In this document: piece by piece, positions 14,801 to 46,081 of the stretch
Position numbering within the stretch: position 1 is the first letter of the stretch
How the letters are laid out: every line of letters begins with the position of its first letter
DNA from: Iphione sp. A-MEVVRFRX5
Lineage: Eukaryota
Assembly (NCBI GenBank): GCA_976226885.1
Contig: OZ320315.1
Span: forward strand, 97,588,001 to 97,652,000
Length of the DNA stretch: 64,000 bases
Reading direction: 5' to 3'
Notes under the pieces: generated by a model
Databases searched by the model: none
Seen by the model: the letters and a program-made list of their open reading frames with translations, nothing else
Told to the model about the DNA's origin: nothing
Position numbers and translations under genes: made by a program

Positions 14801-14956
14801 TTGCTCCTAGGTCATACAGTGTACTACAGGAGCACAGCATTTATGATATCAGATCTTATTTGGCTTGCACGGTGACAAAAAAAACTGCTACATCTCTACA
14901 GATGCGACCTTCAGCTGTCATGAGGAATGAAAATCTTGCTTCATTCGAAAGGTATC

Positions 14957-14967
14957 CAAAATGGCGG
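14957..14967 (+). promoter_or_regulatory. YY1-consensus motif at the element 5' end (candidate internal promoter/initiator)
   Basis: CAAAATGGCGG, ending 34 nt before the ORF1 ATG; human L1 carries a YY1 site at its 5' end. Confidence 0.5.
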
Positions 14968-15001
14968 ACGAGTAGACGTGCCCTGCTGAGCTCTCCCGGT
15001 T

Positions 15002-16738
15002 ATGGTTAAAAACAGTGGTATTGGTCGCCACAAACTCAATCAGGATGACAGACGGCAATATACTAAGCCATCTACCCGTGCTGCATACGCTCTTAGGTCT
15101 GCAGAAAGCATGGATTATCTACCCTCGACCGAGGATACCTGTAAGAGTAGGGCTACAGCGTTGCTGAAAATGGACGCCAGTTTGAACCCAACGGTCGAGC
15201 TGACCAAACTAACTCTAGCTGAACTGGAGAAGTACTCTCAAAGTCCTTCTAACTCACGAAAGGAGGACTCATTGAGTATGGAAAGTGCAAGCAACATATG
15301 TGACTCATTGGAAATAACCCAATCTACAACTTGTACAGACAAAACAATGGGTACGCACCTTCATGCTGGCTCAACTGTCATCGGTAACGACACGATCAAG
15401 GTAGACAAGGCTTCGTTATCCAGTCATCTGCACGTCGGTGGGCCACTCATAAAGCCCATGTTTAAACGTGGTGAGGAGCTTATGAGTTCGACCCCCATGG
15501 TCCCGATCAGCACCCAGGAGTCAAACGTCATCCTATCTCCTATCCCCTCAACCTCCATGGGTGTCAGTCAAGAGATCTTGGACGAAATCAAACACTCTGT
15601 GGATAGCATCGAAAAGAAATTCATGGGTGAGTTACACTCTGTTAAGAATGATATCAGAGACATAAAGTTGTCATTGGAACAGTGTATTTCTAAACAGAGC
15701 CACCCGAGTAAAATGATGACATCGACTCTTGACAGCAAGATTGCTGTTATTGAGGCTAAGCTAAATGCACTGTCAGAAGGCTGCAATGAGGTAAAACTCG
15801 ATCTAACACGCCTAGAGATCAGAGATAGGAGCAGGCGCCTCGTAATTGAAGGTATTCACAAGAACAACAGACAGAACCTAATGAACTTCCTAGCAACTCT
15901 GTTTCATTCCATAGCGGGGATCAGGCGTGACGAAGTGTCAGATTGCATTGTTTACACTGAGTCCGGGAATTATCTTCGTGTCGGGGTTCTCCTGACCTCA
16001 CTTGAGGCTCGGAATCTTATTTTCCGTAACAGACACAAGCTTAGATCTGGAGATACTTCGGGCATCTACGTAAAGGAGGATCTTCCGACCTCGGCGGTCG
16101 ACATAAACAAAAAGCAGCAAAGGTTGGCAAAGAAAGCACGTGTGCAGGGAAGCAAGGCCACTGCCAGGGGCGTGGACTTAATAATCGATGGTGAAAAGTA
16201 TTCTCCTGCTGACATCCCCTACCTTCCATCCTACCTTCAAGATGACTCCCTCAGCACACATGTGACGGATAATGCGTACAAATTTGATGCTGACAACACA
16301 TTATTCTCACCTAACAAACTAGGTCCAGTGATTATCGAAGGTAAACAGTACGCCACGCCGGAAGTGGCTGCGCTATCGCTATTGTCTCGTGACGAACGAG
16401 ACTTGAAGCTCAAAAAAATTGTAAACAACTGTCGTAGTATTGCGGAGGCCAAAGGAGCACTCGATAATTCACAGGCGGATCAGTCATGGGAATCACGTTT
16501 GAAGGTAATACTATCAAGTGTATATGCCAAACTCCTTGAGGATAACTGTGTTGCTCGCGATGCGTTGATTTTGACGGGATCTCGACATATCTGCTTTATC
16601 GATCGCGACCATGTACTTGGAACAGGCGAAAAGTGGGTCACCCCTTTGAATGTCGCGCTTACGGATAACTACCCAGGAAAAAACCTTCTAGGAGAGGTAC
16701 TGATGGGGGTTCGATCACGACTCACAGCAAACACTTAA
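15002..16738 (+). CDS. E3 ORF1 (578 aa): disordered N-terminus, coiled coil, L1-ORF1p-like RRM/CTD, C-terminal NADAR-like domain (about 16277-16738)
   Basis: LEIRDRSRRLVIEGI (compare L1 LExRSRRNNLRIxGI); IYVKEDLP; IIEGKQYATPE; LILTGSRHICFIDRDHVLGTG; YPGKNLLGEVLMGVRSRL (NADAR terminal GxNxLGxxLMxVR). Confidence 0.9.
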   Translation: MVKNSGIGRHKLNQDDRRQYTKPSTRAAYALRSAESMDYLPSTEDTCKSRATALLKMDASLNPTVELTKLTLAELEKYSQSPSNSRKEDSLSMESASNICDSLEITQSTTCTDKTMGTHLHAGSTVIGNDTIKVDKASLSSHLHVGGPLIKPMFKRGEELMSSTPMVPISTQESNVILSPIPSTSMGVSQEILDEIKHSVDSIEKKFMGELHSVKNDIRDIKLSLEQCISKQSHPSKMMTSTLDSKIAVIEAKLNALSEGCNEVKLDLTRLEIRDRSRRLVIEGIHKNNRQNLMNFLATLFHSIAGIRRDEVSDCIVYTESGNYLRVGVLLTSLEARNLIFRNRHKLRSGDTSGIYVKEDLPTSAVDINKKQQRLAKKARVQGSKATARGVDLIIDGEKYSPADIPYLPSYLQDDSLSTHVTDNAYKFDADNTLFSPNKLGPVIIEGKQYATPEVAALSLLSRDERDLKLKKIVNNCRSIAEAKGALDNSQADQSWESRLKVILSSVYAKLLEDNCVARDALILTGSRHICFIDRDHVLGTGEKWVTPLNVALTDNYPGKNLLGEVLMGVRSRLTANT

Positions 16739-16837
16739 GTCGCATACTTATCTCTGACTTGATGATACCTTCTGCCTCACGCAAAATGGTCGTGTATTTT
16801 ATTTTGTCCTTTCTCTTACTTCTTCACAGCAAAAGTG

Positions 16838-17554
16838 ATGAGGTATCCGAGGCAGTATCAGGCAAGCCACTGTACAAGAATTCTCGTCATTGCCGACACT
16901 CAATCTGCGCCGGCCTTCTTGGAACTAGAATCGAGTCTTCATCTTCTCCCTCCTGTATCCATGCATCTAATAACGATCAAACGGTGCTCCTACAGGATGG
17001 TGGCCAAATGGCTATCATATGGGAATGTCTCGTCGTTCCATCTCGTCTTAGTTGCTGCCGGCATGTATGACTGGATGATAAAAAGGGATGGTGAGTGGAG
17101 TGTCCGTACAGGATCGCCGGCGATGTATGCGGACCGTCTCGACTACTATATGTCAAAGATTCTTCATTTGTGCAAGGGTGCCAGTGATGGAGGCCCACAC
17201 GTTGTTTTTTGTCCGGCAGCATGTGTTGATTTATCAGGCATGAATCCAGACATTGTGGACGACATGGATCAGTTCAAGATCAATGCTGCAGTAGTGATAC
17301 ATAACATCAGATGTGAGGGCTCCTCCAGCTCGATAGGCATTTTCCCATGCACCCTTGCCACCCCTGTCACCCATCCTAGTATGGGTGACATTGTGAATAA
17401 CTTCGACCACCTGAAAGCGGATGGTTTCCGGCCAAAGGACACAACCATCTGTGAGTGGAGCTACACTATCAGACTCTTCTTACACGAATACATCAGTTTT
17501 TATGGTTACTACCATATCAGTAACAACGGCCCTCTGGTTCACATCAATCACTGA
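16838..17554 (+). CDS. E3 ORF2: SGNH-hydrolase-fold protein with substituted catalytic residues
   Basis: same position as the SGNH ORFs of E1/E2/E4/F; ILVIADTQ (block I), VAAGMYD (block III), VVFCP, ADGFRP (block V); ATG at 16838 (ORF track starts at GTG 16835). Confidence 0.72.
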   Translation: MRYPRQYQASHCTRILVIADTQSAPAFLELESSLHLLPPVSMHLITIKRCSYRMVAKWLSYGNVSSFHLVLVAAGMYDWMIKRDGEWSVRTGSPAMYADRLDYYMSKILHLCKGASDGGPHVVFCPAACVDLSGMNPDIVDDMDQFKINAAVVIHNIRCEGSSSSIGIFPCTLATPVTHPSMGDIVNNFDHLKADGFRPKDTTICEWSYTIRLFLHEYISFYGYYHISNNGPLVHINH

Positions 17555-18261
17555 GGTATATGTCCTGTAATGACTTGGACAACTTAAAACTGACCAACTA
17601 TGACTGCTCCATAACCGGGAGAGCACAGGCCCCATTTTCTTCTTGTCCCTTGCTAGTACAGTAGGAGCTTAGATACCTCAGAGCAGGAGCTAAAAACTGT
17701 TCATATAGTGTGTCCTATGTCAGGCCAAAACTTGTGGTCGTGTTACACAGAAATGTATCACTTGTATTCCAGGCTCATAGTAATCTGTGATACACTGTCC
17801 GTTTTTCCGGCCAAAAGACTTGAAGTGGTATTATTTATCAACTTTTCATTAATATTCCAGCCTTAAAATTAACCTGTGATACATTGTTTGTCTATTTGTT
17901 ACATTTACTAATCATCTCAATTATATACTAGGCTTGAAATTAATCTTGATGCGTTGTCCTTCAAAGTGTCATACCATTGAACCTACATACTCGTATATTC
18001 CTTCTTTATGTAGGACTAGACTCACTATCTCAGATTCCATTTCCCCAATCCCTTATGCTTTCTTTCTGCTTTCTTCGCAGCATTATTACCCCAATCCCTA
18101 TCCAAGCCTGTACTACCTACCTGTTGACACCAAAGAAATTTATCCGTGTGTACTTAGATGTATTCTTATCCTAGTAAACTCTGAAGTGTCCTTTCAGTTT
18201 CATGTACTTAGCTTACCCTTGAAGCCTTAGCTATAAATTCATCTATTAGTATCATAACGGG

Positions 18262-21039
18262 ATGTCTATCCCAGGCATTTTTCTCATATTATTTCTATAC
18301 TATATCCATGTATCTGTAAACATGACGCCTGGATTGAAATTTGTATGCTATAATATACGTAGCATTACTAAAAAAGTTGAAGATGTCCGAGTCTTGCTTA
18401 GTAATGAAAAGGTTGATGTTTGCCTTATTACGGAGACTTGGCTAAACGAGACAGTGGATGATTCATCGCTTGAGATCAATGGTTACAGCTTTGTTAGACA
18501 TGATAGACATATGTTGGGAAAGAAAAGGGGTGGTGGTATTCTATTTTACTACAGATCGAATTATGAAGTTCAAGCTGTAATGAGGCATCATCATCCCGAC
18601 TCCAAGTGTGAGATCCTAGGCATTACCCTAAAAGCTGGCAATAGGAAACCTATCGAAATCTTGGGGATTTACAGACCACCAGATGACCCCATTAGTGATA
18701 CTGAAGTATGCCTGTCCGTAGCATCAGACGAATTTTTCTCATCGAAAGGCACTGACAGAATTGTCATGGGTGATTTTAACTTTGACTTTACAGAGCATAC
18801 AAAAGTGGGGGGAAAGTTAGTTGATCTACTCTCTCGCCTGGGTCTCCGTCAGTTAATACATGAACCAACGATGATTAACTCTAACAACTGCTTAGACCAG
18901 ATCTGGGTTGACTTTAGTGACCACTCTGGGGGTAAAACACTTGATTATTTCTTTAGTGACCATCTACCTATATCATTTACCATGAAGAAAGGAGTAGGCT
19001 GGAGGAAAAAGGAGGAGATCACACTTCGTAACTGGTCTAATGCTAACCCAATTGAAATACACAACATGTTAGCTAGGGAGGGTCTGCTAGCTAAAACAGG
19101 TAACCATGAAGATAGGTGGGAGAACTTCGAAGATGCCATTCGCAGTTATCTTATAGATAAATGCCCTGAAAAAACTGTCACTGTGAAGAGGGATAGAAAT
19201 GGTTTCGTACCAAGTGCAGCTCTGCTGGACCTAATAGAGGATAGGAAGTACTTTTTTCGAAAATGGAAGAGACTGGGTGACATTGACAGCAAGAGAATAT
19301 TTAAATTTCTGAACAAAAAGGTTAGGGCGTGTCTTAGAGCAGAACGGCGCATCTACTGGGACTCTCAGATTAGTAATGCAAGATGTGACTCCAAGGCTAG
19401 CTGGAATCTCCTTAACAAGGCAGTTGGAAGGAGAAGTGAAACGGTTACGCTCCCGAGTGAAACTAAGGCTGAGGGTGTCAATCTGGCCTCAGCCTTTAAC
19501 TCACACTTTATAGAAGAAGTCACCAGCCTAACAAAAAACCTTTCTCCAATCGCAATAGATCTCTCCAATAAGGAGACAGATGGCTTTGAACTCCCCATTC
19601 CTGATCCAACTGAAATTTTGCAATGTGTACAAAAACAAAAAGTGTCCAAACCTTCAGGCATCCAAGGTATACCAACCAAGATCCTCAAGCCTGTACTGAT
19701 ACTGTGCCATGAATTTCTGACCTGGATATTCATGCAGTCGCTGTTGCATGGCATGTTTCCAACTGTTTGGAAAAATGGTGTAGTGACTCCAATCTATAAA
19801 AAGGGGGATTCCGACTGTCTTCAGAATTACAGACCTGTCACCATACTCCCACTACCAGGCAAAATCTTCGAATCATGGTTCTGTGGTAAAATCATGGGTT
19901 GGATTGAAGACTCTAGTCTTCTCTCGACGGCACAACATGGCTTTAGGAAAGGTCGCTCGACAGAAACTGCCATCACTAGCCTCCTATGTCATCTACAAGA
20001 AAAATACAATGAAGGCAAGCACACATGTGTCCTACTCTTTGACTTGAAAAAAGCCTTCGATGTTATCTCACATAGGAGACTACTGCAGGTGCTAGAACAA
20101 AAAGGCATAGGCCCGGTAACAAGAGCTCTGATCAGCAGCTATTTAACTGGTCGCAAGCAATGTGTGTTATGCAAAGGTGAAAGGTCACAGTATCTGCCAG
20201 TGACACAAGGAGTTCCACAAGGCTCAATAATGGGGCCTAATGCGTTCACTCTGGTGATAGATGACATAGTCACAGCTCTTCCTGAGGGATGCTACCCCAT
20301 ATTGTATGCAGATGACCTAACGGTTTCAGTTCATGCTGGTAACATATTGAAGCTTAGAAGCATTGCGCTAGATGCACTAAACAGAGTGTCTGAATGGTGC
20401 AAGAATGCTGGTCTTGTGCTAAGCAGAGAAAAGTGTTCGTACGTTAGCATTGGAAAAACCTGTGGCTTTGACTTGGACCTTAGTCTGGGGGGTACATCTC
20501 TTAAGAAAGTTGACAGTGCGCGTATCCTGGGCTATCAATTCTCATCAGACCTGAAACCGATTAGGACCCTCAGCCATGTAAAGAAGCTAATGTGGTTGGC
20601 GTGCCTGAAAATAGGGAGAGCCAAGCACCTGCTACCATTAAGGGCTAGGAAAATCCTGTTCACCTCACTGGTGCTAAGCCACTTGAACTTCCATGCTGTG
20701 ATGTTGTATGAGCTGTCAAAAAATCAAAAATCAAAACTTCAAAGCTTTGTAAATAGATGTGCTCGTGTATGCTATCAGTCTAAGGACTTTCTCTCAGGGA
20801 GACTATTGACCAGCAAGTTCTCTGTGCCCATTGTAACGAGTCTTCTGGATGAAAAAGGAACCAAATCTGTAGGTAAATTAATGAAACTAGGTTCACTTCC
20901 AGAGGCTACTAGGACTAAAACAAGACGTGGGTGTCTATCCCGAGGCCTAGTACCAAAACCTATGAGTGCCGGTTTTAGGCGCTCGCTAAGATACAAGGCT
21001 GTATTGAGCTGGAATTCTGAGTTCTATGTTAAGCTTTAA
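18262..21039 (+). CDS. E3 ORF3: intact APE endonuclease-reverse transcriptase (925 aa; likely start Met at 18322)
   Basis: YNIRS, TETW, YRPP, GDFN, LDQI, SDH; NYRPVTILP, QHGFR, DLKKAFD, GVPQGS, YADD; C-terminal SLRYKAVLSWNS; no RNase H. Confidence 0.97.
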   Translation: MSIPGIFLILFLYYIHVSVNMTPGLKFVCYNIRSITKKVEDVRVLLSNEKVDVCLITETWLNETVDDSSLEINGYSFVRHDRHMLGKKRGGGILFYYRSNYEVQAVMRHHHPDSKCEILGITLKAGNRKPIEILGIYRPPDDPISDTEVCLSVASDEFFSSKGTDRIVMGDFNFDFTEHTKVGGKLVDLLSRLGLRQLIHEPTMINSNNCLDQIWVDFSDHSGGKTLDYFFSDHLPISFTMKKGVGWRKKEEITLRNWSNANPIEIHNMLAREGLLAKTGNHEDRWENFEDAIRSYLIDKCPEKTVTVKRDRNGFVPSAALLDLIEDRKYFFRKWKRLGDIDSKRIFKFLNKKVRACLRAERRIYWDSQISNARCDSKASWNLLNKAVGRRSETVTLPSETKAEGVNLASAFNSHFIEEVTSLTKNLSPIAIDLSNKETDGFELPIPDPTEILQCVQKQKVSKPSGIQGIPTKILKPVLILCHEFLTWIFMQSLLHGMFPTVWKNGVVTPIYKKGDSDCLQNYRPVTILPLPGKIFESWFCGKIMGWIEDSSLLSTAQHGFRKGRSTETAITSLLCHLQEKYNEGKHTCVLLFDLKKAFDVISHRRLLQVLEQKGIGPVTRALISSYLTGRKQCVLCKGERSQYLPVTQGVPQGSIMGPNAFTLVIDDIVTALPEGCYPILYADDLTVSVHAGNILKLRSIALDALNRVSEWCKNAGLVLSREKCSYVSIGKTCGFDLDLSLGGTSLKKVDSARILGYQFSSDLKPIRTLSHVKKLMWLACLKIGRAKHLLPLRARKILFTSLVLSHLNFHAVMLYELSKNQKSKLQSFVNRCARVCYQSKDFLSGRLLTSKFSVPIVTSLLDEKGTKSVGKLMKLGSLPEATRTKTRRGCLSRGLVPKPMSAGFRRSLRYKAVLSWNSEFYVKL

Positions 21040-21742
21040 TGTGATCTCTTGTATTCTATGAACTGCAGTGAAAGCAGTCAAATGCATCTTTTGTATTAGG
21101 TTGGTTAATTATTGCATCATTTTTGGTGTATTCTAGTAGTAAAATTCTATAATTAATTCTACCTTTTTACCTACTTGATATTAAACTTTATCCTAGACTG
21201 CTAGGGATCACACAGCGAGTAATAACTATGCTGCTATGATTCCATAATCTAAAGTAATGGGTCACATTGTACGTTATGTAATGTATCCTGTGTTTTTCTT
21301 AAAGATTACTTTCTGTGACATGTTGCTGTACATACAGTCAGTTATTCATCTATGTAATGATGATAATGATTATATTTCGCCTATTGTACCATATTATGTG
21401 TCCTTTATGTTCAAGATATGTCCACATTTGTAATCTCACTATAAGTGAAATTCTCTTACTTCTCTGTCATTTGTGCTGCAAAATATGTTATGTTACTATG
21501 CAAAGTATGTAAGAAACATGAACACGAGTTTTCTGACGGTGTAATGTAATGTATACTCCTATTGAATAATTATTGCTCACGCTCTTGACTATCGATATCA
21601 AATGCTACTTTCATACGTCATATACTGTTTTACATTGTATCTATGTCACGACATGTTTCATTTTGCACTTACATTTGAATTTATATTCTGTAATCTTTTT
21701 GTATTCCGTTTGTAATTGTATTTCTGTAATTTCCAAGACAAG

Positions 21743-21797
21743 CTCCTGACCTGTATCATGGAGAAGGAAATAAACTATCTTGAAACTTGAAACTTAA
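21743..21797 (+). other. LINE 3' recognition hairpin, poly(A) signal and microsatellite tail
   Basis: CTCC-TGA-cctgta-TCA-t-GGAG 21743-21763; AATAAA 21769-21774; CTTGAAACTTGAAACTTAAA. Confidence 0.75.
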
Positions 21798-22960: not shown

Positions 22961-25599
22961 CAATGTGTAGCTATCTGTGACATTCAACCATGTTTCTGAT
23001 ATACAATACCCATGCACACCCTCAGATACGAGACATTCTATCAGCTCCAACATCTGCTCATATTCCTAAGGTTATAATGCATCACTTTGAGCCCTCTCAT
23101 GCTTAGGATATTGATACATCGACGAGTACCAGTTAGGAGTGTCCCCCCAGGACTGATTTGCTTCTCCTCATACACGCTCACCCTCACACCTTTAACCACA
23201 AATCTCACCATTCACATAACGTCACCCTACATTTAATGTTTAAAATTTGTATGCTCTCAAAACGAAATGCACAAATGACAAGAATGAAGTAGTGATATAT
23301 AACAATCATCATCTGTCTAGGATATTGGTCATATATTGCATATATCTTGGATAAATGAGTATAAGTAGCCTTGTCAAAAATACAATCAAGTCCTGCTTAT
23401 CCTTGGCCAACATCCAAACTGGGATATCTAACAAGGTAGCCTGTATGAATAAATGGATATATTTGCCTAACAGAAGTTGCAGTGATAATGAGGCGTATCT
23501 TGAATGTACGGTCCAAAATCATGCATTGGATGGTCTTGGTTAAAGCCTAGAATTTATTGCATGAGTTTCAACACTCTCCTGACCAGCATTTTTGGACACT
23601 ACGTTCATTCATATAACAGTATAACACATTAAAGTATGCAGTACAGAAAATAGTACAAAAACTACATAGCATCCTAGTCATGTTCTCATTCACATAGCAG
23701 ATTAACACAATGGGCTGTTATTTCTGACCATCTAACCATCTCCGGTACATCATGCAGCTTCACATGGGCAATGTTTGTTTGGTGACCTAGTCATATCAAA
23801 GTTCCCACTGGCAAATATTCGTATGAGGATTCTGGAACAAGACACAAATGTTAAACGACATGATAGTTTATGGTATTACCAGGAAGAACTTTCTGATATA
23901 CTCCTGAATGCTCAGTGTATAAGCCCAGTCTGTTTCAGTGAGTGTCTTTTGGGTGATGCCACCATTCTTGAGGTATTCAAAACGTGACATGAACCTTCCT
24001 CCAACACAAGCATTTACAGGGTGATATAAATAGCAGGGTGAGAGACCATACCTCTGCAAAGCCATCAACTCCCTGATGTAGTCATGAATAGGCTGCTGAC
24101 CTGAAAAGAAAAAAAAAATTTTAAGAATGTAATATGGCAATACTGCTGATGTAATTATGATTAAAACTGACTGTATCAGAAATATTATCAAAAGGATTAG
24201 CGATAGTATTGAGTCATAATGTACAGAGAGGCTGGCCTACATAATCATGCTATTTTATAACATAGTGCAAAGTATATGTATTACAGATTCTATTGAATAT
24301 TACAGAAGAACCAGCATACTCATCTTTTGATACACGGCTTGACTCCAATGGAAACTGCATCTGTGTATTGAAATGTCAGGCAGTGAGTGATCCTGGGCAG
24401 CCCAGATTGCCTTCTCAGAATCCACTACCACTTCCTCCACTAGTGGCTGAGAAGGCAGTAATTTCAGGATGGCATCCAAGACTGCACTGTAATCCCCCTT
24501 CTTTAGTCTCGGCTCTCTAACTACTTTAAAAGTGCCATCAATGAACCAGACTTTGGCATTTTGTAGGTGTTTCAGGTGTAACGGTGTTACAAATATCAGG
24601 TGCTGCTGGTTGTCAATAGAAGTGCCTTGCTGGAGGAAGTCATCAGGAATATGAGCCATGTTTATCTTCATTTTCTTCATTGCTCAGTTGACAGCTCACT
24701 GAAAATATTTAACCTTTGGCAGGGGGATCTCATCAGTTGTTTCCAGCTGTTTCAATGTGTCCATGACAAGTTTTTCCTATGAACTGTACAGGTTGGCAAT
24801 ACCTGACTGCTTTGCCTATATAAATATACACATATACAAACATGGCATTAATATATTATAGACTCTACAATAAACTACATACATGAGTACATATATATAT
24901 TTATGCAAGGTTATAAAGTTATGTAAGGTTTTAAATACAGCACAGGAAGTCAATGAAGATACATGATACACAATACAAATGAGAAAAGCAATATTACAAT
25001 GCATCTACATCGATGATCTATGACAACAATACAGTTGAACTAACCTTTGCTTGGGACTGGGTCACCAGGGTGCACATGGTCCTAGGATGAAATCCTCTCC
25101 CTTTTGGTAAACTGATGCCAAGCATTTCCTCCTGCTACAACTGCAGAACCATCTTGTAGCTATACCGGACACACTTTTCTTCCCATAGGTGAACCCTAGG
25201 CTGTCAGTCAACAAGTTGTGACTTCCTTTGGCACCAGCTTTCAGGAAAAAAGACAAAATTTCAAAGTTATAAAACACTGTTTACAAAGACTGTTTTCAGC
25301 ATTAATGGGAGATTTGGTAATATCAAATTACATAAACAAAAACTATGTTCTTATTGATACCAAATCTTGGTAAAAACTTTGTTGCCACTACAATAGGTAA
25401 TTGGTACTGGTGTAGATCATTTAATGAATATTAATCATGGGTACATACATACAACAAATTAATTAAAGATAAATCAGACATAGAGGTTCCTAAAAGTCCA
25501 TAATCTAACAATGATACTGTATATAATTCAAGGATAAAGAAATCAGTATTAAAAAAAGGATTTTCTAATGTTTGCAAAGTACTACAACTGTACCTTTGG

Positions 25600-39639: not shown

Positions 39640-40500
39640 CTAGTTTCTTTTCAAATTCTTAATAAATTTTTCCAGCAATAGTACAAGTTTGATTTTTCCA
39701 GCCCTATTGAAGTGGCAGCCATCTCCAAGCATTTTATAGCTAGTAGCCCTCTCACCCCTTCTTCTCCTATATGTGAGGTATCCTATAATGTCCATTCTGA
39801 AAATTGACATCAGTGATTGTGTGGTTGACATCCCTTAAGATTACATTTGCTGCGTGTTGTGTTTCAGTGCTACCATTCAAATCCTTGATTCTATTGATAT
39901 GTATATTGTACTTAACCACATTTATACCTGGAATAATCCCTAGATAAAAAAAATAATTATGTCCAAGCTTATTGTACAATCTGAAACTGGCTTCCTCGAT
40001 TATGGTCAACATGTTATTGACTACCTTTTCGGCTGAGGTACTTCTCAGTTCAATTGTGGCATAGCTGTCCCCACTCTGGTCATGCTTCAAACTCTTCTTG
40101 GTGCAATTACTTATGCCACCTAGCAAAATCTCTCCCATTATAACACCAGGATTAACGCTTACCTGTTCTAACTCCTGTACAAGTCTGTCCAACCATGCTC
40201 CAGGGAACATAAGTACTGACACCTGTTTCCCTACATCCCCCATCATACGTTCGAGGGCTGCACCTCTTGTGTCTGTCACACAATCAGGGATCTACTACTT
40301 AAAATATCACAATAGCCTTTAGCTTTTTTCCCTGCTGCCGCTGCCCTCTCTGGCGATGTGTACGATCTGCTCTGTGCGCCTCTCGCGCATGTGGTCTCAT
40401 CCCCTTTTGTTCGTCTGTACCGAATCGTCGTCCAGGAATCCCCACGCTTTGCACCCCGATGTTACCAATTTGCCACTGCTCCACTGTTAGTAGTAGTCAC
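39640..40500 (-). pseudogene. conventional esterase-type LINE ORF1 (basic N-terminus + SGNH)
   Basis: SWTTIRYRRTK..SP..DIL then SLIVTDTRG, MFPGA, LLGGISN, LGDGCHF; no NADAR upstream. Confidence 0.75.
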
Positions 40501-43329: not shown

Positions 43330-46081
43330 ATCCTCTGCTATGGCCAGGCTTAGCTTTCTCATAATGTCAAGGGTACCGTGATATGCAATGGATGGTGGTA
43401 CATACCGGTGTCCTGAGTCCAAAAAATATTTTTCTGATGGGATATGTGCATTCACGCCACTGTAAGACAAAGTCTATTATGATTCTCCTATCAGAGGGCT
43501 GTTTCTCAGGAGTTGACAGCATTGGACTAGCTACATACCATGGAACAGAAGGGGTTGATGCTCTGGACCAATTACAACATTATACAATAGCTTGGTATCG
43601 ATGTACTTTTGCACAGCATGCAGGTATTTGGTAGATGAAATGAAATTTTCATCAAAATCAAATAAAATGTCTGGACCTTTGTAACCAATGGAGGAGCCAT
43701 AAAGGATGTTATTATAAATGAAACTGTCTAGTGGGCTCAACATGAAATGCCCACCCACTCTGATATGGCCAGGTGGGTGGGCAGGGGGATTTTAGCTTCC
43801 AGTTGGTTGGGCCTGCCTGTTTTTTGGACACTGGAATAAACCAAAAAATTGTAGTGATGGTTTGGGTCAATGGTTGTATAAGGGGTTGGCCATGACAGGA
43901 GGTGTGTGAGGGTCATTGCATTGTATTGCAGTCCTGCCAGCAGCTGAGTTGTTGTCATGCCGGGGTAGCTGTCTTGTATCTAGGTGACCCAGTCCGGTTC
44001 CGACTCACTGCCATTCTTCCTGTCGGCATCTTTGGGCCTGCGGCTGTATGTTGGATTGTGGCCGCTGCTGCTGTTGCAATTTCTTCCTGAGTCGGCATGC
44101 CTCTGTCTTGTGTTCGAACCTCCTGCTTAAATGATAAAGGCGATCTAGGGCATGCATGTATTATCATGAATACCTCATTACCTTCAGGTTTTTATCACAC
44201 TTCCTGCAGCCACTGGGGGCATATAACCACAGAGTCTTTCTTGCTTTGCATCAACAACTTTCCCTTCCCCTTCCCTTTGATTCGAGGTAGTCATTAATGG
44301 CCCTGGTTTTGCATAAGTGAGCCACATGCTTATTACCCCAATTAAACTTTTTCTTTTTGGCTGCATGCCATAATTCCATGACCCACTGTCTCAGCGGGGG
44401 CCACAGCAATGATATTGCCTCCTCGGAAACCTCTGCTAGGTGGGTGAACAAAATAGTTTGATCTTTTATCAATCTGGCTAGGCCAACGATATACTGTGGA
44501 AAAGTCAGTCCTTCAACATCTGGGATGTCAGACTTCTTGAAATAGATGTATGTAGCAGGGGAAATTAACTTTTTCTTCTTACCTGCCATAGAAATTGCCG
44601 AAGGGTAGATGAGTCCAGCTATCTGCTGAAATGTGTGTGTTGCCTCGTTGCACAGCTGTTCTGGTGGTGGGAGTTCATTTTCCTTGGACTCCTCTGACTG
44701 TGTGACATTACTGGTTGTTTCCATGTGTTGTCCTCTTACTGCCGCTTCGAGGAACTCTGTATGGGTCTTGATAAGTTTAACCCTTTTAAGAACTTTGTAT
44801 AGCTGTGCGTTTGTATTTTGCCTGGAGACCCTGCAGCTTCTATGCATGAGATGGTGTGTGAAGCCTATTTATATAACTGTGGTTCAATAAGCCGCTACCA
44901 CGGGGCCTGTTACCTCGCAAATCCTTACAAGCACATTCTTCCCTTGGGCTTGCGAGGCGTAGCACATCCTTCATGCATTGTTCTCTGCTTTCCTCCTCCG
45001 TCTGTCACTATACCTCAACTTGGTCTGCCGTTTGGAGAATTTCTCGTTCAAGAGTCCCCTGCTGTTTCAGCCTTTTTTGCTTGATATGCGTGTTCGGCAC
45101 TCTGGTAAATTGTATCCTTGTGTTGAAAGGTAGCTTGATATAGGTTGCTCAGACTCGCACATGGACTTTCAAATACCACTCTGTCGTCCGTGACCGCCTG
45201 CTTCTTCTTGTCCAGTGTGAAATCCGCGGGTAGGTTACATAACTCCCTCGCCTTGAATGAGCGATCGTTCACGTATAAGGTCAAACCATTCACTGATGCC
45301 TTATGCCCCTGAGCCTTTGCCAGATTCATGATCACCCTCATCTCGCCTTGTTGTTCCCTTTGCTTGACTGTCAGATCATTAGAGAGCCATATGTTTGAAC
45401 CTTTCAGTTTGTTCCTGCTCTTCATTACCGCAAAAATTATCCTCCTGGGCCAGGAACTTCACTACCAGCTCGCGGACCCCTTTGACTGATTCTTTACTTA
45501 TCCGGTAACAGCCTCCAACAGCCCTCCTATTCACTTTTATCCCTACTTTGCATAGTCGAGTCTGTACCTCATCAGACGGTTTCTGTCCCTCCTTCCCAGT
45601 TAATCCGCTGACCACCTGTGTGTTTGACCTCATGGCCTTATCCATTTGTGACAGACTCGACCTCCGTTTGGTTAGTTTTTTTAGAGTTGACTTCTCATCG
45701 GGTAGTCTCACTATCTCGATTCTTAGCTCCTCATTCTGTTTAGCCAGGTTCTCATTTTTTTGAGCCTCCGCCGAATCACCCTGAATTTTCTTTACCTCCT
45801 TTTCCATGTTCTCCCAACTACTGTGCGTGCCCTTAAATGTTGCCTCCATTGTTCCAAATTCTTTCTGTGCCTGCCTTCTTTCCCTTATGTATCGATGAAG
45901 ACACCTTTCTCTCCCTCTTTTTTAGCTCTCTGTTGATCACCCCTTTACAATACATCAGAATCCTCTCCTGCCTGTGTTCCCTGTTCATCTCTAGTATGTC
46001 ATATATTGTTTCCGCCAATTCCTCATGCTCGCCTCGAACCTTTGTCCCGTCTAATACTCCAACCTGGCCCTCTTGAGTCAC
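43330..46081 (-). mobile_element. Element E5: DIRS/Ngaro-type retrotransposon remnant whose gag region begins with an L1-like ORF1-NADAR
   Basis: coiled coil/RRM/CTD 45190-46081; NADAR SLSNLYQATF..YQSAEHAYQAKKA..REILQTAD..EQCMKDVLR..PGKN (45180-44765); Ngaro-like gag LTFPQYIVGLARLI..HLAEVSEEA..W..LRQW (44251-44600); RT start SIGYKGP..VQKYID..IGP, SPMLSTPEK..RRIIID..SGVNAHIP (43330-43758); 3' part lost. Confidence 0.75.

Follow-up and report, generated by a model that had tools for sequence, protein, structure and literature searches.

A conserved gene with a predicted SGNH fold that has lost its catalytic residues lies in a three-gene non-LTR retrotransposon of Iphione sp.

The window, by which we mean the whole 64,000-nucleotide stretch of DNA that was analysed, is dense in LINE remnants and is part of a 118-Mb contig in a 1.18-Gb animal genome. 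Within it lies E3, a full-length non-LTR retrotransposon whose three genes are all open and all on the plus strand, in the order ORF1-NADAR, SGNH, and APE-RT. The features are listed below by position in the window, together with E1, a decayed esterase nearby.

14953 to 21792, plus strand: E3, a full-length non-LTR retrotransposon with three open genes; ends approximate, taken from a 90-92% match to copy L031
14958 to 14974, plus strand: motif at the 5' end, patterned like a four-codon uORF (ATG GCN NNN GAG TAG), in 55 of the 62 loci having both stem arms
14990 to 15005, plus strand: long-range inverted repeat, 5' arm, with a core of 11 nt and a perfect match over 16 bp in E3; in 65 of 81 loci
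15002 to 16738, plus strand: ORF1, 578 aa when begun at its first ATG in frame; N-terminus variable, middle predicted to be coiled-coil/RRM-like, NADAR at the C-terminus
16137 to 16365, plus strand: synonymous-site motifs in ORF1, namely CACGTG at 16137, TGAC at 16210, GTAAACA at 16341, and CCGGAAGT at 16358
16265 to 16735, plus strand: NADAR domain; Glu454 kept, Lys site Leu461, last-strand Glu site Phe532, WG Trp replaced by Leu539
16486 to 16504, plus strand: putative exon 1 of the SGNH gene, read in a different frame within the NADAR code; six codons, M-G-[I/L]-x-F-x
16505 to 16829, plus strand: predicted GT-AG intron, 325 nt, phase 1, containing the 3' part of NADAR
16830 to 17554, plus strand: predicted second exon, SGNH-fold pseudo-esterase (ORF 16838-17554 plus 8 nt)
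17555 to 18321, plus strand: non-coding spacer, 767 nt (507-2008 nt in relatives); putative cassette/pol exchange zone
17609 to 17624, plus strand: 3' arm of the inverted repeat, core 59 nt past the SGNH stop; in 76 of 81 loci
18322 to 21039, plus strand: pol, APE endonuclease and reverse transcriptase, 905 aa (Pfam RVT_1 7e-33, Exo_endo_phos 2e-9)
9432 to 9983, minus strand: E1, a decayed esterase belonging to a different family; its S, G, N, and D-H motifs are in shifted frames

The APE endonuclease and the reverse transcriptase (RT) occur together in one ORF of E3, a feature of APE-type non-LTR retrotransposons; RT matches were 30-45% identical and mostly without clade names. The middle region of ORF1, the part in which type II proteins have an L1-like RRM and CTD, had no Pfam or PDB match, and its Atlas leads, all unnamed animal proteins, reached only 0.89. 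At the position of window 15020-15022, where E3 reads ATT, an ATG that opens M-G-R is present in many relatives, and the in-frame ATG of E3 at 15002 sits within the 5' stem arm. The pol ATG has a purine at -3 in 69 of 69 loci. The spacer before it holds 4-38 ATGs, and the gene-structure model leaves the translation route of pol unexplained; an acceptor or shunt landing upstream of pol was rejected, the spacer being ATG-rich and without a conserved acceptor. We also observed TCTGTGAT in 15 of 26 representative spacers of E3-family loci, at no fixed distance from pol. The 5'-terminal motif resembles a YY1/TISU element.

E3 has at least 150 relatives in the genome, 46-100% identical (the best 150 of 2588 candidates). 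Eighty of those 150 matches were fetched, with a preference for open frames and spread over identity, which with E3 gives 81 copies; as a mostly open-frame sample from the top 150 of 2588 candidates, it is biased toward conservation. Most of the 81 loci have ORF1, SGNH, and pol in that order, and all three frames are open in 17. Counts out of 41 for ORF1 and NADAR refer to copies whose ORF1 match is uninterrupted. Among the matches listed, many E3-family copies lie within ~20 Mb of contig ends, and the window also holds a remnant like the C-terminal part of the E3 SGNH (23895-24047, minus strand, 36%, E 2e-5).

For the middle gene, the original prediction described an ORF at 16838-17554 open over 238 codons with altered SGNH blocks. 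We found both to be correct: the blocks read D20-T21 (T at 16898), G75-M76-Y77-D78 (Y at 17066), and D195-G-F-R198-P (R at 17429, the His-to-Arg change), and their registers are backed by a profile match to the catalytically complete homologue P0002 (HH probability 95, E 3e-8). The block II Gly, absent from the earlier list, is also replaced in E3 (Cys50), and with Tyr77 at the block III Asn both oxyanion-hole residues are changed. Searches with this ORF found no match in Pfam, none credible by sequence in the PDB, and none in a word index; a full profile scan gave two weak matches only. An AlphaFold model built from 42 copies (pLDDT 81.7) had a best Z of 14.9 with an rmsd of 2.8 over 167 residues and a Foldseek E of 2e-7 to GDSL esterases, and nearly all structural matches listed were SGNH/GDSL-type esterases. 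Thus, the structure prediction that had been proposed as a check yields the SGNH alpha/beta fold. The invariant residues His11, His68, Cys112, and His121 of ORF 16838-17554 lie beside neighbouring strands, on the side facing away from the old active site, where a metal site is possible.

The catalytic loss had been taken as a trait of one copy, and we found it to be family-wide. Among the 81 copies, the Ser site of block I is Thr in 63, Arg in eight, and Ser in three; the block II Gly site is Ala in 55, Cys in 18, and Gly in six; the block III Asn site is Tyr in 67, Asp in seven, and Asn in two; and the block V His site is Arg in 66, Thr in 10, and His in none, with Asp195 retained in 77. Position 73, the transposon-specific His site four residues before the block III Asn, is Ala in 56, Ser in 19, Cys in five, and Thr in one. 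The T/Y/R combination at the Ser, Asn, and His sites occurs in 59 copies. Thr21 is written with all four of its codons and Arg198 with five, indicating that the replacements themselves are selected. Thr occupies the His site in 10 copies, and eight of these, which form one clade and reflect one event, have Arg at the Ser site; one pocket Arg is therefore retained either way.

We estimated dN/dS for SGNH from 167 unsaturated pairs among 3240, and obtained 0.142, 0.119, and 0.098 in three dS bins (pairs with dS 0.1-1.5). These values are below that of NADAR (0.20-0.33), and E3 and L032 differ in SGNH by a dN of 0.068 and a dS of 2.2. A comparison among E3-family copies had been suggested earlier, and its outcome is strong purifying selection (0.10-0.14) rather than neutrality. 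In addition, 24 columns are invariant in 42 SGNH sequences with identity down to 46%. The original idea that selection keeps the fold and not catalysis therefore stands as far as it goes: the fold is predicted, selection is purifying, and the catalytic residues are gone throughout the family. As judged from sequence, we conclude that the SGNH product is a family-wide selected pseudo-esterase, and it likely acts as a binder and not an enzyme.

Proteins of the E3 SGNH family have a median pI of 6.5 and a net charge of -3, versus pI 9.1 and net +6 in 34 intact-esterase proteins. Lys or Arg is nevertheless kept at positions 22, 48, 49, 53, and 200 in 71-80 of 81 copies, a basic cluster that is placed near the old active site by homology only. 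The esterase of ZfL2-1 does not depend on its catalytic residues to bind acidic lipids, and its liposome binding is charge-driven (PMC3905857, available text). With the E3 family at pI 6.5 and net -3, ZfL2-1-style membrane binding is weakened for E3, and so is the generic membrane-binding option of the original prediction, given that the family is neutral to acidic with only a local basic cluster left.

A second search reached other three-gene LINE families, in which 30 of 40 loci fetched keep Ser and His, indicating that the catalytic loss is lineage-specific and old. The esterases of these intact families have their own Met, and AGATAA lies shortly upstream in 23 of 37 loci (L123-L162; 34-115 nt 5' of block I) versus 0 of 41 control windows. 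Their NADAR keeps the Glu and the Lys, and in some also the last-strand Glu, which is Ser in the L135-L151 group and retained in L152, L156, L157, L159, and L161. Neither the long-range stem (by an exact-match scan) nor the micro-exon was found in the intact-esterase families. Many of the esterase matches listed cluster on C26 at 1.1-2.4 Mb, where L127, L130, L133, L148, and others are esterase ORFs with no nearby ORF1 or downstream pol match; such lone ORFs could be stand-alone or tandem copies. For E1, the motifs reported earlier are present on the minus strand (DSRG 9983-9966, PG 9911-9900, GTND 9843-9829, DGYH 9446-9432), and its decay is evident in motifs spread over two frames with two shifts. 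A partial esterase of another family at 39767-40291 (minus strand) reads TDTRG; Ser is retained in the closest relatives of this esterase, and its own Thr at the Ser site likely reflects decay.

The NADAR domain of ORF1 was identified with a Pfam E of 1.4e-6, under the curated cut-off, and a profile E of 4e-18. Its fold matches at E<0.001 were 2B3W (YbiA) and 8BAU only, and a single-sequence PDB search gave nothing credible. We mapped the catalytic residues on 8BAU as named in the available text of PMC11543638. Hydrolysis by NADAR is described there as requiring both the Lys (K50/K95) and the last-strand acid (E125/D171) (PMC11543638, PMC11125620), with Arg able to replace the Lys in vitro (PMC11543638). 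Compared with these NADAR/YbiA hydrolases, E3 has the fold and the E43/E88 Glu in common, and the K50/K95 Lys and the E125/D171 acid are replaced. The equivalent Glu454 is present in 40 of 41 copies; the Lys site is Leu461 in E3 and most commonly Gly (11), Arg (11), Tyr (4), or Leu (3) in the 41 copies; and the acid site is Tyr in 25 and Phe in 16. The original account of the NADAR losses was accurate for the lost Lys and WG Trp and for the kept Glu of TPE, and went too far for 'SN', of which only the Asn is lost (Ser in 34 and Ala in seven at the first position, Pro in 38 at the second). The Asp of DHVLG, named there as kept, occupies a different position and is not a catalytic acid; the last-strand Glu site itself carries Phe or Tyr in all 41 copies. 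With two of three catalytic residues gone, the NADAR of the E3 family is predicted to be inactive.

We found no support for the suggestion that this NADAR reads ADP-ribose. Fixed DNA signals coincide with its kept Glu and with one Trp: an ETS-like motif spans the Pro-Glu of TPE, and the SGNH start codon spans a NADAR Trp. Part of the NADAR conservation may therefore be dual coding, and that of the Glu and this Trp may not serve the protein. Two further NADAR-type ORF1 remnants lie in the window, at 45048-45921 and 10111-10992, both on the minus strand.

Residues just N-terminal to Met1 of the SGNH ORF are conserved, and Met1 is Leu in six of 81 copies. A pyrimidine tract and an AG lie ten and nine bases 5' of Met1, with A in 76 and G in 78 of 80 loci (anchored on His11). 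Upstream, two GT sites in the NADAR code, at 16341 and 16505, are fixed at synonymous positions. The donor at 16505 reads MAG|GTA in 41 of 41 copies versus a synonymous null of 4.2, and the micro-exon before it starts ATGGG in 41 of 41, with a purine at -3 in all 41 (a strong context). Both intron ends were found in 69 of 80 loci, with intron lengths of 264-468 nt. Joining 16486-16504 to 16830-17554 gives 247 residues, the donor phase fitting the acceptor. From these patterns, the SGNH ORF is probably a second exon, so that the 238 codons are not the whole gene, which would start at 16486. The second codon of the micro-exon is an invariant Gly. The usual myristoylation pattern constrains position 6, which fits in only four of 69 loci.

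We found no intronless copy among 80 loci, and none of 25 DNA matches spanned the splice junction. L087 was considered as a spliced genomic copy and rejected, its deletion lying away from the splice sites. Read-through from ORF1 into SGNH was also rejected; the two are kept apart by stops, and the frames vary among copies. A stop-restart at Met1, past the second donor, was not relied on: a stop lies within 8 nt of the ATG in 58 of 76, but the amino acids largely force it.

If the SGNH gene starts within ORF1, its RNA would need a start upstream of 16486. The four synonymous-site motifs of ORF1, which sit 120-350 nt 5' of 16486, were present in 26, 38, 40, and 30 of 41 copies versus 1.8, 5.4, 8.5, and 4.4 under synonymous nulls that ignore phylogeny, and likewise in 28 representatives. 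We take them to match E-box, CRE half-site, forkhead, and ETS sites. This suggests an internal promoter within the ORF1/NADAR code, and the motif at 16341 could also serve as a splice donor. A conserved acceptor was not apparent 5' of 16486.

The 5'UTR and the spacer of E3 contain the arms of an inverted repeat that brackets ORF1 and SGNH, the 5' core being the reverse complement of the 3' core. Both arms occur in 62 of 81 loci. Flanking positions form Watson-Crick pairs in 48, 46, 38, and 44 of these 62, versus 18, 18, 15, and 24 when shuffled. The pairs covary: in 28 representatives there were 144 pairs versus 90±8, none of 20000 shuffles reached this number, and all four bases were used. 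At an adjacent position G-U outnumbers A-C 12 to 1, which favours pairing in sense RNA; across the broader stem region G-U is only weakly in excess (28 versus 21, representatives).

Distances among 38 loci correlate better between ORF1 and SGNH (rho 0.58) than between either and pol (0.37). E3 clusters with L032 and L033 in ORF1 and SGNH and not in RT, and an AU test on RT (20 of 38 rows) rejected an E3/L032/L033 clade at p 6e-39 and a second such clade at p 2e-6, the groups having been picked after viewing the trees. As read from these trees, the ORF1 and SGNH genes form a cassette swapped between pol lineages. Exchange of ORF1 among LINEs is discussed in the available text of PMC4120745 and PMC3905857.

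Taken together, we favour, with moderate confidence, a model in which a conserved SGNH-fold gene without catalytic Ser, Gly, Asn, or His makes, from a spliced sub-genomic RNA starting within ORF1, a separate 247-residue protein, a non-catalytic accessory factor that by phosphate binding would tether the particle of the element to acidic membrane lipid. An RNA driven by the internal promoter in the NADAR code would start upstream of 16486, and removal of 16505-16829 would join the six codons in frame to the SGNH exon. The old active site would have been rebuilt, with one Arg at its core, as an anion-binding pocket that conserved basic residues surround, and the NADAR would also be inactive. Overall basic charge is lost but Lys and Arg are kept in the loops lining the old active site, which favours a specific phosphate-binding pocket; for its ligand, our analysis ranks membrane lipid first, with the main rival being RNA or protein. 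That the ligand is phospholipid head groups is the weakest step, and we consider it doubtful. The 5'UTR-spacer stem would form only in full-length RNA, which would be marked as the template. Internal-promoter RNA would be without the 5' arm, so that the stem could tell the template apart, and this fits the absence of intronless copies. We hold more tentatively a wider view, in which E3 follows a virus-like plan with an internal promoter, a hidden start, an intron in a pseudo-enzyme gene, a template stem over a range of 2.6 kb, a mobile cassette, and both former enzymes serving as binders.

The best-surviving alternative keeps the same gene structure and has the pseudo-esterase scaffold the particle by binding either RNA or a protein, be it ORF1p, pol, or a host factor. 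Inactive SGNH folds have been reused for binding in Oskar (PMC4754038; PMC3905857, available text), and conserved basic residues close to the old active site would serve such a role as well. The better agreement of the SGNH tree with ORF1 than with pol could reflect a partnership, but the overlapping exon forces co-inheritance with ORF1. A low net charge suits a protein interface and speaks against general RNA binding. On balance we judge this scaffold rather unlikely.

It is improbable, in our estimate, that the main product is instead an ORF1-SGNH fusion, spliced from 16340|16341 to 16830 in frame with most of NADAR swapped out. Such a fusion would give the coiled-coil plus esterase layout seen in known esterase ORF1 proteins, and a phase-1 G|GTAAAC is present in 37 of 41 copies, with the codons GGT in 37 of 38 and AAA in 41 of 41. 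However, the wider pattern RTAAAYA is conserved in 40 of 41, and some of these copies have AT rather than GT, which better suits a DNA-binding site. We downgraded 16341 as the main donor on this pattern and on the second donor and its own ATG, present in 41 of 41.

Altered catalysis, in which Thr21 would be the nucleophile and a different His, for example His191, the base, is more improbable still. Thr appears selected at the nucleophile site, given its four codons, and both Asp195 (77/81) and His191 (74/81) are conserved. Against this, Arg occupies the nucleophile site in a sub-family whose frames are open (8/81), both oxyanion-hole sites are replaced, and in ZfL2-1 a single change of Ser or His abolishes hydrolysis (PMC3905857, available text). 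Finally, that the ORF is a decaying passenger open by chance, for which the lack of a Pfam match could speak, is already refuted by a dN/dS of about 0.12 with saturated dS, the 24 invariant columns, and the confidently predicted fold.

Parts of the arrangement preferred here, a spliced pseudo-esterase in a NADAR-bearing LINE, resemble known systems. In type IV ORF1p of CR1/L2/RTEX LINEs, including ZfL2-1, an SGNH fold likewise lies 5' of an APE-RT pol; there the esterase is the ORF1 protein itself, coiled-coil-fused, active, and basic, with a strongly conserved active site (PMC3905857, available text). The E3 gene differs in standing on its own between a complete ORF1 and pol, with neither the catalytic residues nor the transposon-specific His, and it is not basic and apparently spliced. 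NADAR is also carried by Tx1 LINEs of Crassostrea gigas, in ORF1, and by Ectocarpus Gypsy Pol; the available text of PMC12477816 mentions no esterase gene, catalytic loss, or overlapping exon in these. Bdelloid Vesta LTR elements and Athena retroelements have GDSL/SGNH as an extra separate ORF, without catalytic residues in Athena-L derivatives, as in the E3 family. These elements are LTR or Penelope-like rather than APE-type LINEs, their ORF3s show no clear departure from neutrality, and NADAR and an overlapping exon go unmentioned in the available text (PMC5408684). The OSK domain of Oskar belongs to a host germ-plasm protein with shown RNA binding, and is likened to the E3 SGNH by its inactive fold (PMC4754038; PMC3905857, available text).

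Thus LINE ORF1 esterases, Tx1 NADAR, extra or dead GDSL ORFs in rotifer retroelements, and dead SGNH binders are each in print singly. The listings of openly accessible papers that were searched contained no report of a three-ORF spliced LINE with NADAR and esterase or of a 5'UTR-spacer stem. The novelty of the arrangement could be affected by an unpublished Repbase annotation or by the supplement alignments of PMC3905857, PMC4120745, and PMC12477816. Among vertebrate CR1-group elements, a survey from 2026 mentions neither a third ORF nor splicing in the available main text (PMC13343379).

Whether selection keeps catalysis or binding in LINE esterases has been open since the structure was solved. 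This genome has both states, lineages with intact Ser and His and a large lineage that has lost them at a dN/dS of about 0.12, and natural proteins can thereby be used to test the question directly. APE-type LINEs copy themselves through RNA, so that finding a conserved intron in one of their coding genes is unexpected. Such an intron implies control of spliced versus full-length RNA, for which the covarying stem is a concrete candidate.
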